A stretch of 38,163 bases of DNA from a virus: the IMG/VR virus record IMGVR_UViG_3300045988_182321, positions 1 through 38,163 of that record; one strand, 5' to 3'. The notes beneath the pieces are model-generated. The model had not been told where the DNA came from. It saw nothing but the letters and a program-made list of their open reading frames with translations, and did not search any database. Made by a program: the position numbers and the translations under genes. This document shows, one piece after another, positions 1,298-33,921 of the stretch (position 1 is its first letter; every line of letters begins with the position of its first letter).

Positions 1298-1514
1298 GCG
1301 ATACATATACAAGGTCGTCGTAAAAAACGGCGATAAAGTGAGAACGGTTTTGTCTGTTCGGGCAATAGCGGATATACGGGCGGTCAAACGTTGGTATTAT
1401 CAGAAATACCAGCAAAAGGACGGCGACTTGTTCGTGATTTGCTCGGACGAAGAGGCTGTGTGGGAGGCAATGAGAGAGGCGCATGAAAATAAACAAAGTT
1501 CATTGCATGTTTGA
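1290..1514 (+). CDS. Hypothetical protein (74 aa)
   Basis: ATG overlaps the end of the upstream gene (coupled). No motif recognised. Confidence 0.5.
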   Translation: MSKRYIYKVVVKNGDKVRTVLSVRAIADIRAVKRWYYQKYQQKDGDLFVICSDEEAVWEAMREAHENKQSSLHV

Positions 1515-2157
1515 ACAGTCCGGGACATTTAAGCGGGCATTCCAAAAGCAAGGCATTACGGCTTTTGACTACGATATTCGTAATGATTTTGATGAAACGG
1601 ACAATGTGGTTGATTTGTTTCGTGAAATCGAAAGAGCGTATGCGGGGGAGCAATCCGTGTTCAATGAAATCGGAAGTGATGATTTGATAATCGCATTTTT
1701 CCCTTGCGTAAGATTTGAAGAGCAAATACAATTGGCTTTTCGTGGAACTCAATACCAGTTGAAAAACAAAAACGACGAGGAAAAGTTAGAATATGACTTG
1801 CGACTACATCGCCAATTAGCCGATTTTTATGAAAAAGTGACTAAATTAGTAATTGTATGTTTACGCAAAAAGTTAAGACTTATCATTGAAAATCCGTATT
1901 CATCAACACATTATTTGACCAAATATTGGGCGTTAAAGCCGAAGATTATCGACAAAGACCGCAGAAAGAATGGCGACTACTACACAAAACCTACGCAATA
2001 TTGGTTTGCAAATTGTGAACCAAACGCCGAGCCTTTGTTTGAAGCCCCGGTATGGCGAGCCGAAAGAAAAACCATTGCGCACGTGAGAAATCAGGTCGCG
2101 AGGTCGCTTATATCTAACGAATACGCTGAACGATTTATAAAGGAGTATATTCTATGA
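1483..2157 (+). CDS. C5-cytosine-methyltransferase-like catalytic core without an obvious target-recognition domain (224 aa)
   Basis: Motif I-like FEQSGTF (aa 10-16), motif IV-like FFPCVRF (PC at aa 74-75) and motif VI-like IIENP (aa 134-138), in canonical order and spacing. The protein ends about 55 aa after the motif VIII region. Confidence 0.5.
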   Translation: MKINKVHCMFEQSGTFKRAFQKQGITAFDYDIRNDFDETDNVVDLFREIERAYAGEQSVFNEIGSDDLIIAFFPCVRFEEQIQLAFRGTQYQLKNKNDEEKLEYDLRLHRQLADFYEKVTKLVIVCLRKKLRLIIENPYSSTHYLTKYWALKPKIIDKDRRKNGDYYTKPTQYWFANCEPNAEPLFEAPVWRAERKTIAHVRNQVARSLISNEYAERFIKEYIL

Positions 2158-4551: not shown

Positions 4552-5033
4552 TTATGAACAAAGAACAGCAGATAGAAGAAATAATGTTGACTATCCCGCA
4601 AAAAATAGTTGCTTACAACGGCGACCCCAAAGGGCAACACCTATACGGTGAACAAAGATTGCAAATAGCAGAAGTTCTTTATAATGCAGGCTATCGAAAA
4701 GTCCCCAAAGGTTCGTTTATTTGTTCCGCAGATAAAACAAATCTGGATGTAGAAGTTTGCAATAATTGTGGAATGAAACAAGCAAACGAGTTATTTGAAC
4801 GGGATAAAGAAATCAAACGCTTAAAAGCCGAGAACAAGCAGTTACAAGAGAAATTAAACTCCGATAATGCGGGTAACATAAATTGCAGTGGTTGCGGATT
4901 AGTGGAAACAAACGCCGTCAAAGAGTTTGCGGAAAAGTTGAAAAAGTACGCCATTAAGACAAATTCGCCCGCGTGGGGGCTTATGGAATTTGTGGAAGTT
5001 AGCGATATTGACAGATTATTGACGAACTATTAA
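4548..5033 (+). CDS. Hypothetical protein with coiled-coil segment (161 aa)
   Basis: GAGGAG SD, ATGA overlap. KEIKRLKAENKQLQEKL heptads. Confidence 0.65.
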   Translation: MIMNKEQQIEEIMLTIPQKIVAYNGDPKGQHLYGEQRLQIAEVLYNAGYRKVPKGSFICSADKTNLDVEVCNNCGMKQANELFERDKEIKRLKAENKQLQEKLNSDNAGNINCSGCGLVETNAVKEFAEKLKKYAIKTNSPAWGLMEFVEVSDIDRLLTNY

Positions 5034-5047
5034 AGGGCGCGAAAAAA

Positions 5048-5338
5048 ATGAGAAATAAAAGAACTATGGTGCTTGAAGAATTAGAGCCGATTGCAAAACC
5101 GCTTGGGATAAAACTTGATTATGTTATTGAAGAAACTCGTGAATATTTGCTCTGTAACGGGCAAGCAATTTGTTGTAATTGCACAAGCATTGAGGGTATA
5201 CGACAAGAGTTTTTCGGATATGTATTTCTGCGTGAATGGCGTGAACGTTATTTAGGGGCTTTCGATAAACAAACACGCAATCACATAAAACAATATTGGT
5301 ATGACAAAGATTTTAATCAACCGTATTTGAGAATATAG
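5048..5338 (+). CDS. Hypothetical protein (96 aa)
   Basis: ORF in the co-directional early operon. No motif recognised. Confidence 0.6.
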   Translation: MRNKRTMVLEELEPIAKPLGIKLDYVIEETREYLLCNGQAICCNCTSIEGIRQEFFGYVFLREWRERYLGAFDKQTRNHIKQYWYDKDFNQPYLRI

Positions 5339-8648: not shown

Positions 8649-8678
8649 ATTATATACCATTGGAATATATTTGTCAAG
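8649..8678 (-). promoter_or_regulatory. Consensus promoter TTGACA-18-TATAAT on the minus strand
   Basis: Reverse complement reads ttgaca aatatattccaatggtat ataat-type, with TTGACA at 8678-8673 and TATAAT at 8654-8649. A GGACGA-N5-TCGTCC inverted repeat (8613-8629) lies between the promoter and the SD. Confidence 0.7.
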
Positions 8679-31411: not shown

Positions 31412-32650
31412 TCAGCCCTCAAAGCGTTTAAGTTTTACAAAATAATCAGTAAAAGGCGATTTTTCGCGTTTCATAAAATGCGTATAAACGTCTTTTGTCA
31501 TCGATAAAGTAGCGTGACCGAGCCATTTTTTGGTTAAAAGGTCGTCAATTTGTGTTAAATGGCACATTGTGGCAAAAGTATGGCGCGTAGAATGAACGGA
31601 AACGTCGGTAAAGCCTAATTTTACAAAAGTTCTGCCGAAAGCGAGTTTAACAGCGTTGTAGGTATAATTCTCCGAAACGCAGTAGTCGAGTTCTTCTCGT
31701 AAACTCTCGTCATAATTGATAAAACGTTGTGACGTGCGGTTTTTCGTGTCGTGTTCAATAATACCGTCGCGGTTCATCATCTTATTGACCCGTATTTCGT
31801 CATCACCTATATCGTCGGGCGTGAGAGCCAAAAATTCACTTATGCGCATACCCGTACAGCAAAGGACGGTAAAGAGCCGACTATACTTTTCGGGTAAAGC
31901 CGTAAGGATAGCCGTTTGTTCTTCCGCAGTAAAAGCGCGTTTATGCTCCGACTTAACTTTCGGGCGTTTCAAGAGTTCGCAAGGGTTTTTGCGTATTTTC
32001 TCCGAAATGACCGCTTGACGAAGAGCGGAATTAATAACGTCGAATACTTTGCGCCGTGAGTTTTCGCCGTTTATAGATATAAAGAATTGTTGCAGAATAT
32101 CGGGCGTAAGTTGTTCCATAGGCGTTGCGATTGTCTTTATCTTATTAAATGCGTCCATATAACCTCTTTTCGAGTTCGAGCGTAAGTACGGTTCTTTATA
32201 TGTTTCGTACCAATAATTAACCCATTCGATAAAAGACGAGCCTTTCTTTGTGACGCGTTCCGTTTTTTCCTTTTCTTTTAAAGGGATATTCTTTAATTTT
32301 TCAATAACCTCCTTTTGAGTTTTAGCCGTTACCGTGTGGCGTTGGAATCTACCCTCCCACCACGTGTAGCGGCTATTTTTGTTTTTCCGGGAACGTTTCC
32401 GAATAGACCCCGCCCCGAAAGGCAGATAAACAGACATTTTTTCCTCCGCCTGAATATCCGATAACAACCTGAAATTAACGTCAGGATAAGGGGACGGCTT
32501 TCCGCCCTCACTTACAATACGAAAAGGCGATTTGCGCGTAATCGGTTCATTTGCGAAATCGTCGTTTCCTATTATTTTGCCGCACAATAACGAGGCTTTT
32601 TGTAAAGCCTCCGCTAAAAGGTCGAGCAATCTCCTTGTATCATCTTCCAC
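31412..32650 (-). CDS. int: Tyrosine recombinase / phage integrase (412 aa from GTG; alternative ATG at 32437 gives 341 aa)
   Basis: HSTRHTFAT (H-x-x-R) and LGHATLSMTKDVYTH (catalytic Tyr) near the C-terminus. Arm-binding-like GSIRKRS...YTWWEGRF. Adjacent to attP. Confidence 0.9.
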   Translation of the reverse strand: MEDDTRRLLDLLAEALQKASLLCGKIIGNDDFANEPITRKSPFRIVSEGGKPSPYPDVNFRLLSDIQAEEKMSVYLPFGAGSIRKRSRKNKNSRYTWWEGRFQRHTVTAKTQKEVIEKLKNIPLKEKEKTERVTKKGSSFIEWVNYWYETYKEPYLRSNSKRGYMDAFNKIKTIATPMEQLTPDILQQFFISINGENSRRKVFDVINSALRQAVISEKIRKNPCELLKRPKVKSEHKRAFTAEEQTAILTALPEKYSRLFTVLCCTGMRISEFLALTPDDIGDDEIRVNKMMNRDGIIEHDTKNRTSQRFINYDESLREELDYCVSENYTYNAVKLAFGRTFVKLGFTDVSVHSTRHTFATMCHLTQIDDLLTKKWLGHATLSMTKDVYTHFMKREKSPFTDYFVKLKRFEG

Positions 32651-32674
32651 TCCATATACTCCTCCAAAAAATAT

Positions 32675-33025
32675 TTAACCTACATTGCTTTGGGAATTTT
32701 TGAGAAACGCTTCGGCATAGCCGAGAACTTTTCCTTGCTGTACTGCTGTCAGTTGCCTGAACAGAGCGAGCATTTCTATCTCTTGCGATGTTAAGTTACT
32801 TGATTGTGTACGAGTCGCTTTCGGAGCAGGCTCCGTGTAAAAATAATTCTCGGGCAAATCAAACGCTTCGGAAATTCTTGCAAGCGTGCGCCGAGAGGGG
32901 GCGGCTTTCCCTGTTTTCCAACTTTGTATAGAACCATTGGAAATTCCCACTTTAATCTCAAAGTTTCGAGCGTTAAGCCCTTTTTTCTCCATTAACTCAT
33001 AAATTTTATTCAAAATAATATCCAT
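32675..33025 (-). CDS. CI-like repressor, XRE-family HTH, no S24 peptidase domain (116 aa)
   Basis: KKGLNARNFEIKVGISNGSIQSWKTGKAAPS HTH. Divergent from the Cro-like gene and upstream of int. Confidence 0.8.
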   Translation of the reverse strand: MDIILNKIYELMEKKGLNARNFEIKVGISNGSIQSWKTGKAAPSRRTLARISEAFDLPENYFYTEPAPKATRTQSSNLTSQEIEMLALFRQLTAVQQGKVLGYAEAFLKNSQSNVG

Positions 33026-33038
33026 AATTTTTCTCCAT

Positions 33039-33102
33039 AGAAAAAATTCTTAAAAAAGTTCGGAAAAATTCCTAAAATCGCTTGACATTTAGGAAATTTT
33101 CC
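33039..33102. promoter_or_regulatory. Three operator-like palindromes (AGAAAAAATTCT, GGAAAAATTCC, GGAAATTTTCC)
   Basis: Located at 33039-33050, 33062-33072 and 33092-33102. The third lies in the spacer of the rightward promoter. Confidence 0.55.
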
Positions 33103-33110
33103 TATATAAT
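33082..33110 (+). promoter_or_regulatory. Rightward consensus promoter TTGACA-17-TATAAT (PR-like)
   Basis: ttgaca tttaggaaattttccta tataat. About 390 nt upstream of the cro-like ATG. Confidence 0.75.
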
Positions 33111-33213
33111 ATAAGTGTAAACAAGGTAAAGCAACTGCGTTACGGTCAAATTTGAAATAAAACACCTATATCGTATGGCTCCGACATAAGTGTTTACCCA
33201 AATTTGTTTACCC

Positions 33214-33228
33214 TGACAATTGCACTGT
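33214..33228. repeat. Left copy of 15-bp inverted repeat (TGACAATTGCACTGT)
   Basis: Reverse complement of 33446-33460 matches at 14 of 15 positions. The mismatch would be a G-U pair in RNA. Confidence 0.9.
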
Positions 33229-33431
33229 GTTCGGCTCTCCACCTATTAACAGACAAGTAACCATCCTTGCTTCTATTGTTGCGATATTACTTTTGCGGTT
33301 TTGGTTCCGCTGAGCGCATTAAGCCAATAAGAACCGTGAGCAATCATTCCGACGGGTCACGGATACAGGGAGCAGCGCGCTTATCAAGGCTTTCATAAAA
33401 GAAGTCCTCCAAGCGCAAGTTGCGCAAATTT

Positions 33432-33461
33432 ATTATATCGCAAAAACAGTGCAGTTGTCAA
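33432..33461 (-). promoter_or_regulatory. Leftward consensus promoter TTGACA-18-TATAAT facing the PR-like promoter
   Basis: Minus strand reads ttgaca actgcactgtttttgcga tataat. The -35 lies inside the right copy of the inverted repeat. Confidence 0.7.
33446..33460. repeat. Right copy of 15-bp inverted repeat (ACAGTGCAGTTGTCA)
   Basis: See 33214-33228. The copies are separated by 217 bp. Confidence 0.9.
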
Positions 33462-33509
33462 CTAATTTAACACATTGTTAACAAGATTTACAAAAAGGAG
33501 GTGGTAAAA

Positions 33510-33701
33510 ATGGACGCAAAGAGATTGGAAAAGTTAAGAGTTAAGAAAGGACTGTCGCAAGTAGAGTTTGCGGAACGAATCGGAGTAAGCCGTCAAGCCG
33601 TATGGAAAATGGAAAGCGGCTTTATGAATCCGTCGGTCGAAACGCTTAAACTCATAGCGAAACTTTTCAACGTCACGACCGATTATTTGCTCGGAATGTA
33701 A
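33510..33701 (+). CDS. Cro-like XRE-family HTH protein (63 aa)
   Basis: AAGGAGG SD at 33494-33500, ATG 33510. KKGLSQVEFAERIGVSRQAVWKMESG HTH. Confidence 0.8.
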   Translation: MDAKRLEKLRVKKGLSQVEFAERIGVSRQAVWKMESGFMNPSVETLKLIAKLFNVTTDYLLGM

Positions 33702-33732
33702 AACTTCAAAAAAGTCAATGGAGGATAGAATA

Positions 33733-33921
33733 ATGACTAACGAAGAATTTATCAAAAACTTAAAAACGGAAGAATTGGCGCGTGTGCTTAAATACGCAAC
33801 CGATTGTCGGCATTGTCCGATTCGCTCTTTCTGCAACAAAACCGATTGTGAAGATTGCGAAGAAACGTGGTTTCGTTGGCTGAAAGCAAAAAAGACGGCG
33901 GAGGACTTGAACAATGATTGA
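33733..33921 (+). CDS. Small Cys-rich protein (62 aa)
   Basis: GGAGGA SD then ATG 33733. CRHC...C...CEDC pattern. Confidence 0.6.
   Translation: MTNEEFIKNLKTEELARVLKYATDCRHCPIRSFCNKTDCEDCEETWFRWLKAKKTAEDLNND

Follow-up and report, generated by a model that had tools for sequence, protein, structure and literature searches.

FuFi-1 is an orphan RNA to which its discoverers ascribed 'properties suggestive of sophisticated biochemical function' (Weinberg et al. 2017, PMC5737381). It ends in a Rho-independent terminator and self-cleavage was not seen; motifs of this kind were considered improbable riboswitches and are rarely found in 5' untranslated regions (PMC5737381). The main text of that paper states neither a function nor a phage context for FuFi-1. 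Here we report a predicted RNA that is, by the Rfam criterion, a new and divergent member of this family, located between the cI-like and cro-like genes of an uncultured virus (IMG/VR virus record IMGVR_UViG_3300045988_182321); the whole stretch of 38,163 nucleotides (nt) that was analysed is called the window. Secondary sources reportedly place FuFi-1 close to XRE-like genes.

In coliphages 186 (pR/pL) and P2 (Pe/Pc), the region that separates the repressor gene from the first lytic gene holds a lytic and a lysogenic promoter that point at each other, and in 186 the lytic promoter is strong and the lysogenic promoter weak. Morons are independent promoter-gene-terminator units in prophages, a concept that comes from the lambdoid phages. 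P22 sar (against ant), lambda OOP (against cII) and Anti-Q of pCF10 are RNAs with their own promoter and terminator that are transcribed against a regulatory or lytic transcript. To our knowledge, these RNAs are lineage specific and act by complementarity, and they are not conserved structured motifs shared by unrelated elements. For convergent promoters, sitting-duck, occlusion and collision interference have been established (PMC5001618). On pCF10, convergent promoters that overlap by a few hundred base pairs (bp) give both interference and antisense pairing; collision interference grows with the length of the overlap, and a second level of control at prgQ/prgX comes from truncated antisense RNAs (PMC4519249).

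We consider it probable (roughly 0.72) that the window comes from a temperate phage with a convergent-type switch, in which a self-contained FuFi-1 cassette separates the two promoters and has taken the place of the core of the lysogenic one (Table 1). Two promoters that match the consensus at 12 of 12 positions face each other between the repressor gene and cro, about 309 bp apart and exactly where the original prediction had placed them. A regular-expression scan of both strands found three such perfect promoters in the 38-kb window, at 33082 (+), 33461 (-) and 8677 (-). By chance, 0.03 would be expected per window under a base-composition model, and 0.001 per 500 nt of local composition, so the pair is not an accident of AT-rich DNA. 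The other features predicted for this spacer are also there: it has no open reading frame (ORF) of at least 60 amino acids (aa), a GC-richer core (0.47-0.50 around 33300-33450, compared with 0.21-0.35 in the flanks), direct repeats of TGTTTACCC at 33191 and 33205 with an inverted copy at 33114-33124, and operator-like palindromes over the rightward promoter.

Of the functions proposed originally for the spacer, a structured regulatory RNA is the one to which the Rfam search lends support, as far as the structure is concerned. FuFi-1 (RF02986) matches the minus strand from 33334 to 33159 over model positions 1-175 of 175, with 79.8 bits against a gathering score of 59.6 bits (E = 5e-17 over 32600-33900 and 1.6e-15 over the whole window). 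It is the sole Rfam family that reaches its gathering threshold in the whole window, and the covariance model matches the minus strand only. The score lies below the 105-148 bits of most phage copies. The conserved hairpin GCnGAACCAAAACnGC inside P1 is present as GCGGAACCAAAACCGC with high posterior probability, P1 itself having two non-canonical pairs, while the fourth hairpin, of 8 bp in the model, is marked as non-canonical or absent and an insertion stands in its place. The 16-mer GGGUAAACAAAUUUGG occurs at a single site in the window, even when up to 3 mismatches are allowed. The window RNA shares with the described family the full-length match, the GGGUAAACAAAUUUGG stretch, the hairpin GAACCAAAAC and a predicted Rho-independent terminator at the 3' end. 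Both strands of the region fold better than shuffles (z = -3.1 for the minus and -2.9 for the plus strand); this is expected, as the complement of a structured RNA folds too.

The terminator is predicted at about -17.6 kcal/mol (minimum free energy fold), with an AU-rich stem that contains four G-C pairs. It is located about 270 nt past the leftward start, before the rightward promoter is reached. When read on the plus strand, the same hairpin is followed by the tail UUUACCC and is not a good terminator. The predicted FuFi-1 RNA of the window is a short form of about 275 nt (from ~33425 to ~33155), which starts about 90 nt 5' of the Rfam model. The original prediction had taken the leftward promoter as that of cI, with a leader of about 400 nt. 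This does not hold, because the promoter belongs to a cassette that has its own terminator. The long mutually antisense leaders that had been proposed stand up in full for the rightward cro transcript but not for the leftward one, which would end about 270 nt after its start.

Table 1. Features in and around the cI-cro region of the window (promoters, operators and terminator are predictions)
Feature	Position	Strand	Remarks
Tyrosine integrase gene	31412..32650	-	Lysogeny module; strand shared with cI and FuFi-1; adjoins cI
cI-like repressor gene	32675..33025	-	116 aa; HTH_3/HTH_19, no peptidase domain
Operator-like palindromes	33089-33105; 33059-33075; 33037-33053		Repeat finding and mismatch scan; the first lies inside the P_R spacer, the last is weaker
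P_R-like early lytic promoter	33082..33110	+	TTGACA-17-TATAAT, 12/12; predicted start ~33117
Only usable leftward candidate promoter between terminator and cI	33106..33134	-	TTGCTT-17-TATTAT, 8/12; overlaps the P_R -10 box
FuFi-1 cassette	33142..33475	-	334 bp, missing from L120, L121, L122 and L124
Intrinsic terminator	33155..33195	-	14-bp stem (33195-33182 with 33173-33160), 8-nt loop, then UUUUAUUU
FuFi-1 16-mer GGGUAAACAAAUUUGG	33198..33213	-	Exact; falls on the best-conserved stretch of the Rfam model
Short 5' domain beyond the Rfam model	33335..33425	-	Hairpin GCGCAACUUGCGC, GGAGGA, AAGCGCGCUGCUCCC
FuFi-1 promoter	33461..33432	-	TTGACA-18-TATAAT, 12/12; predicted start ~33425
Remnant of the lysogenic promoter -35 box	33476..33481	-	TTAACA (TTGACA in relatives)
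cro-like gene	33510..33701	+	63 aa; HTH_3; first in the rightward operon

The assignment of the leftward promoter to FuFi-1 comes from a comparison with other phages. The comparison set consisted of the IMG/VR loci that carry the exact 16-mer (119 loci, 32 clusters at 90% identity). Rfam confirms FuFi-1 in 19 cluster representatives, with 78-148 bits, and the other clusters are chance matches to the 16-mer; counts out of 20 below refer to these 19 clusters plus the window, and P values based on them are optimistic. In an alignment of the upstream sequences, TTGnnn-17-TAnnnT, often with an extended -10 TG, precedes a conserved 5' hairpin in 19/19 of the other clusters. This hairpin (GCC-loop-GGC) starts 6-8 nt after the promoter and is followed by conserved sequence beyond the Rfam model, in the order hairpin, (A)GAAAGGAG, UGGUC-loop-GACCA and CUUUUGAnUUUGCCUGCUCCCUU, with about 130 nt more in most loci. 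The promoter and the first ~60 nt of the window align with the other clusters, with an equal distance between promoter and 5' hairpin, the consensus GGCAAA/UUUGCC being replaced by GCGCUU/AAGCGC in the window. At the other end, a 3' hairpin of -15 to -29 kcal/mol with a U-rich tail is found in 20/20 clusters. The transcripts predicted for the other loci are 297-392 nt long, and in most of them the conserved 5' domain measures ~200 nt, which leaves just the 3' half of the RNA to the Rfam motif. Because promoter and 5' sequence align with those of the other clusters, the data support the view that the leftward promoter of the window is the conserved FuFi-1 promoter and that its predicted primary product is a terminated RNA and not the start of the cI mRNA.

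Comparison with close relatives shows what the locus looks like without the RNA. A protein search with cI found five relatives in IMG/VR (L120-L124) with 83-98% amino-acid identity, and an Rfam scan found no FuFi-1 in any of these five. Four of them (L120, L121, L122 and L124) are 94-97% identical to the window on both flanks (blastn) and have about 30 bp in the place of the cassette; the breakpoints lie at window positions 33141 and 33476 relative to L120, L121 and L124, and at 33134 and 33476 relative to L122. The cI-cro intergenic region of the relatives is about 165 bp long and holds two 12/12 promoters face to face, with the -10 boxes 39 bp and the start sites about 26 bp apart. This is exactly the layout of the 186/P2 type, and the comparison with these coliphages in the original prediction was apt. 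The cro-direction promoter, including the palindrome in its spacer, is identical in the window and in L120-L122. The cI-direction promoter of the relatives is TTGACA-17-TATAAT (2847-2875 in L121), and its -35 box abuts the ribosome-binding site of cro. In the window a remnant of this -35 box is left, and the spacer and the -10 box are replaced by the cassette, which supports the conclusion that the cassette took the place of the core of the lysogenic promoter.

The fifth relative, L123, carries an unrelated insert of about 714 bp (2187-2900) in the slot between cro and the convergent promoters, with the lysogenic promoter kept. With the insert come a further promoter in the cI direction (2181-2209) and an ORF of 153 aa (2233-2694), which has a hydrophobic N terminus and for which no Pfam or PHROG family was found. 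The insert resembles a moron that encodes a protein, in the slot that FuFi-1 uses in the window, and since L123 carries a different insert there, the slot takes accessory cargo. L123 also has six tRNA genes directly past its integrase end (4755-5266), which may be host DNA that flanks the attachment site of the prophage. L124 and L123, whose cI is 83-84% identical to that of the window, keep both consensus promoters and have TTAATTAAAATAATGA in place of the TTAGGAAATTTTCCTA palindrome (window 33037-33105), which looks like another immunity specificity on a shared switch scaffold.

The unit also recurs between unrelated sequences. Four independent pairs of phages (L015/L032, L048/L092, L021/L102 and L054/L109) share a block that extends, counted from the 16-mer, from -360 to +70 with 87-97% identity, and outside this block the surrounding ±2.5 kb are unrelated except for short scattered matches. 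The shared block of about 432 bp runs from the -35 box through the end of the terminator, and the cassette of the window is bounded likewise. These observations support the idea that the FuFi-1 unit is a discrete promoter-to-terminator block that would move between phages as part of their mosaic genomes. In the L011 lineage, FuFi-1 is kept in every relative with a repressor at least 73% identical, which argues for selection and not for a transient insertion. No clean pair with and without the RNA was found in the L011/L073 lineage, where the relatives that lack FuFi-1 are mosaic upstream of cI and the breakpoints are undefinable. A FuFi-1 copy in another lineage, at ~2371 in L171 (compared with 2306-2369 in L167), has a 64-nt deletion by which the end of the 16-mer and the terminator are lost; the lineage otherwise keeps the RNA.

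The gene context, called with an iterated HTH (helix-turn-helix) profile and spot-checked with Pfam (the downstream gene of L117 is HTH plus Peptidase_S24), is constant. A repressor-like HTH gene lies downstream on the strand of FuFi-1 in 17/20 clusters. In 11 clusters a small HTH gene is located upstream on the opposite strand, with FuFi-1 inside its leader as in the window, and in 7 such a gene follows immediately downstream and reads into FuFi-1. In both arrangements FuFi-1 is, as predicted from the gene order, antisense to the early lytic transcript. A promoter of at least 10/12 on the opposite strand is present within 350 nt downstream in 15/20 clusters, compared with 6.7% of 875 background windows taken from the same loci (binomial P ~3e-14, optimistic as noted above, though the effect is large); for at least 11/12 the values are 12/20 and 2.1%. 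In L115, L119 and L054, the stretch from the terminator to the repressor gene (+80 to +315 from the 16-mer) holds near-consensus promoters face to face at a distance of 75-100 bp, and L011, L073 and L014 have the classical back-to-back arrangement. Such uncultured phages may commonly have convergent switches. Most FuFi-1 terminators (for example those of L011, L119 and L104) are preceded by an A-rich run and followed by a U-rich one and could be bidirectional. In the seven clusters with a cro-like gene that reads into FuFi-1, the terminator would lie just past the stop codon, the position of lambda tR1.

On the lytic side of the window, a mismatch scan found no operator-like site at the leftward FuFi-1 promoter, and a low-threshold scan for a further strong rightward promoter upstream of cro found none, with no site of at least 8/12 on the plus strand of 33380-33520. 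Together with the palindromes this supports the rightward promoter as the putative operator-controlled early lytic promoter and the sole candidate for cro. The cro leader would be about 393 nt long from this promoter, with about 275 nt of it antisense to FuFi-1, and the transcript to cro crosses the entire FuFi-1 gene and its promoter in antisense. The Shine-Dalgarno (SD) sequence and ATG of cro, at about 33495-33512, are outside the FuFi-1 transcript.

Based on this arrangement, the locus could work as follows. In a lysogen, the repressor would shut the rightward promoter, and FuFi-1 would be made constitutively as a prophage-expressed, moron-like RNA; its promoter would stay on because there is no operator-like site there. 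The supply of cI would probably come from read-through of the AU-rich FuFi-1 terminator, perhaps with a contribution of the weak promoter at 33134-33106. Polymerases that read through would have to pass the operators, which would give negative autoregulation of cI, as in the relatives. Upon lytic firing, head-on collisions of polymerases would occur over the ~309 bp between the two consensus promoters, and about 275 nt of perfect complementarity between the RNAs would allow both transcripts to dampen each other. The cassette would thus lengthen an interference already present in the ancestral layout with its 26 bp. FuFi-1 probably also has a partner in trans, beyond its putative antisense role, because its sequence and structure are conserved across unrelated flanks and this is not required for an antisense function.

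Several points weigh against this picture of the locus. Promoter activity, terminator efficiency and read-through are predictions from the sequence. The low score, the one model hairpin that does not form and the much shorter 5' domain mean that the window FuFi-1 could be a decaying copy. The existence of phages that are 94-97% identical and do without the cassette shows that the switch can do without it, and it may be where it is because the slot, which also holds the gene of L123, is permissive to insertions, and not for a regulatory role. An efficient terminator would starve cI, which would speak against a simple model or for a defective lysogen. Whether the cassette was inserted or lost is inferred by parsimony only. 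The P values are optimistic because the clusters share ancestry and were all found via one 16-mer.

A decaying passenger, that is, a divergent and shortened FuFi-1 copy that sits in a permissive slot and is functionless in the window phage, would account for the low score, the truncated 5' domain and the absence from the relatives, and a copy with a 3' deletion is seen in another lineage (L171). We nevertheless give this only a slim chance, as the window copy has a 12/12 promoter and an intact terminator, 16-mer and GAACCAAAAC hairpin, and retention in the L011 lineage suggests selection in general. It is quite unlikely, too, that the locus is a pure convergent-promoter switch, in which the promoters interfere, cI and cro have long antisense leaders and the sequence between them is a passive spacer. 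The geometry is real, the close relatives have face-to-face consensus promoters with no RNA gene between them, and such pairs are also seen past the terminator in FuFi-1 loci (L115, L119 and L054). However, here the spacer is a conserved RNA family at gathering score with its own terminator, the block recurs between unrelated flanks, which is not expected of a passive spacer, and the leftward promoter is homologous to the FuFi-1 promoter and not to the lysogenic promoter of the relatives.

Two rivals see a leader RNA in the element. If FuFi-1 were a cis-acting leader or attenuator of the repressor gene, a signal, or a ribosome at AAGGAG and the start codon, would set the terminator and hence the transcription of cI. 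The co-directional repressor-like gene downstream in 17/20 clusters fits this, as do the SD-like AAGGAG found 7-10 nt before a TTG, GTG or ATG in nearly all loci and, in the window, an RNA that ends in a terminator with no strong cI promoter left. Attractive as it is for the window, the model does not extend to the other clusters. FuFi-1 and the repressor gene are separated by a gene on the opposite strand in seven clusters, and among the other loci whose co-directional repressor-like gene follows closely, seven (L011, L073, L109, L115, L119, L054 and L014) have a separate strong promoter in the direction of the repressor past the terminator. Selection on the peptide of the mini-ORF is unlikely (see below), and the discoverers' judgement on riboswitches and 5' untranslated regions (PMC5737381) points the same way, so we regard an attenuator as unlikely, if less so than a passive spacer. 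The other possibility, the least credible of all, is that the functional RNA is a structured cro leader on the plus strand, for example an antitermination or processing site, and that the minus-strand promoter is incidental. The plus strand does fold better than shuffles (z = -2.9), but the complement of any structured RNA folds, and it is the minus strand that the covariance model matches and on which the promoter and the U-tract terminator are conserved. Moreover, the element is 3' of the cro-like gene in seven clusters, and the long closing helix of that strand, 33214-31 with 33443-60, is not conserved and is within the range of shuffles. A FuFi-1 cassette set between the promoters of a convergent-type switch thus remains the reading that we prefer.

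Several other candidate elements in the spacer were rejected. A 25-aa leader ORF (33396-33319 on the minus strand, with GGAGG 9 nt upstream) was discarded as a gene, as its GGAGG aligns with the conserved RNA element AAGGAG. In other loci, the 'MTKLLxLPxP' mini-ORF is substituted at codon positions 1 and 2, reaches a stop codon within 12-39 codons and starts with TTG, GTG or ATG, and the conserved CUGCUCCC motif is in another reading frame in the window than in the other loci. Because of these codon changes, variable stops and the frame shift of CUGCUCCC, peptide selection on the mini-ORF is unlikely; ribosomes may still load at the AAGGAG-like element of the 5' domain. The TGTTTACCC direct repeats are not operators, the copy at 33205 being the FuFi-1 16-mer and the copy at 33191 the 5' arm of the terminator. 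Their inverted counterpart near 33115 belongs to the ancestral leader and lies outside the cassette, as the relatives without the cassette have it too. An 18-nt inverted repeat that links the FuFi-1 promoter (33443-33460) with the body of the RNA (33214-33231) has no counterpart in the 19 other clusters, and since shuffles reach 14/16 it is put down to chance. A long-range helix between the 5'-domain segment CCAAAcUUUUGanUUUGCC and the 16-mer, proposed by RNAalifold, finds no covariation support among variant 16-mers: no compensation is seen for C8->A (L275) or for G15->A (in six loci of three sequence types), and C8->U (L293) keeps a G-U pair. As a promoter for cI, the leftward 8/12 site at 33053-33024 is unusable, as it runs into the cI start codon at 33025.

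Outside the Rfam model, the 5' domain also holds AAGGAG, CUUUUGAnUUUGCCUGCUCCC and a second hairpin with an ACCAAAG loop (in L117, L109, L015, L115, L054, L007, L028, L104, L027, L060, L056, L014 and others). The domain, of ~200 nt in these loci, is shortened in the window and in the L011/L073/L119 group. A helix at columns 134-143 with 204-214 of alignment A3 has compensatory changes. Hairpins with an ACCAAA(A/G) loop occur as GUGGnACCAAAGCAC in the 5' domain and as GCAGAACCAAAACUGC in the part covered by Rfam, at A3 columns 89-104 and 251-268, and L030 (5773-6217) and L095 (5976-6420), with Rfam matches of 225 and 290 nt, seemingly have extra copies of the ACCAAA hairpin. The recurrence of these hairpins suggests modular duplication or repeated binding sites. 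The L095 contig, which carries FuFi-1, also has skipping-rope RNA (RF02924) at 1486-1565 (+), and L086 has it at 1769-1846 (-). Skipping-rope RNA is another orphan motif with a terminator (PMC5737381).

Elsewhere in the window, the third 12/12 promoter (8649-8677, -) drives genes at 8600-8322 (-) and 8317-8150 (-), on the strand opposite to their neighbours. They encode a 92-aa acidic protein for which no Pfam family was found and a 55-aa HTH_3 protein, and this two-gene unit may be another moron or a toxin-antitoxin-like pair. No tRNA or tmRNA was found in the window. A blastn search with 32600-33800 against 50,697 GenBank phages gave no match, nor did a window-specific 24-mer in IMG/VR. FuFi-1 is expected in Firmicutes or Fusobacteria or in phages of these; a search for the host with cI in GTDB genomes gave distant matches only, with 23-27% identity (metagenome-assembled genomes of Lachnospiraceae and Gemmiger).

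Set beside the described systems, the locus differs from each of them in part. Compared with 186 and P2, the leftward promoter of the window is that of FuFi-1, with a terminator before cI, and not a repressor promoter, which it is in L120-L122 and L124. The overlap is ~309 bp with an RNA gene and a terminator in between, both promoters are perfect consensus sequences, and the repressors are unrelated XRE-type HTH proteins; the interference is a prediction here. FuFi-1 of the window resembles sar, OOP and Anti-Q in its predicted promoter, terminator and antisense direction, but it is conserved across unrelated flanks and does not overlap the ribosome-binding site of cro. It resembles a moron in being a discrete unit, present or absent among near-identical phages and located between core genes, and in its apparent orientation for expression in the prophage, with a consensus promoter, no operator-like site and the strand of cI and int. 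In contrast to known morons, its cargo is a non-coding structured RNA that is consistently in the immunity region and antisense to the early lytic transcript.

The explanation of the locus is mostly ordinary: the odd promoter spacing of ~320 bp results from a known RNA gene that is inserted between the promoters of a convergent switch. What appears to be new relative to the description of the family (PMC5737381) is the conserved 5' extension of ~200 nt with a fixed promoter, which makes FuFi-1 a self-contained transcription unit about twice the length of the Rfam model, together with its mobility from promoter to terminator, the orientation rule in phage immunity regions and the natural pairs of phages with and without it, among them the window phage with its displaced lysogenic promoter. 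The main text of that paper has neither the cassette behaviour nor the fixed orientation in the immunity region. The finding also means that face-to-face consensus promoters of the 186 type occur in uncultured phages from metagenomes. As the phages with and without FuFi-1 are 94-97% identical on the flanks, the biology of this orphan RNA becomes testable, and because the repressor promoter is replaced in the window phage, a phenotype should be measurable. We tentatively suggest, as an idea that is more probably wrong than right, that FuFi-1 is an RNA 'moron', an autonomous unit of promoter, RNA and terminator that phages of gut Firmicutes pass among themselves and place in the immunity region, always in the direction of the repressor gene and against the early lytic operon. 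It would be expressed from the prophage and act in trans, in RNA-based immunity or braking of the lytic programme, or in defence or host manipulation, and in the window phage it would supply transcription of the repressor by read-through. If this is true, an orphan RNA that was flagged as 'sophisticated' would gain a biological role, with natural isogenic pairs available as a test.

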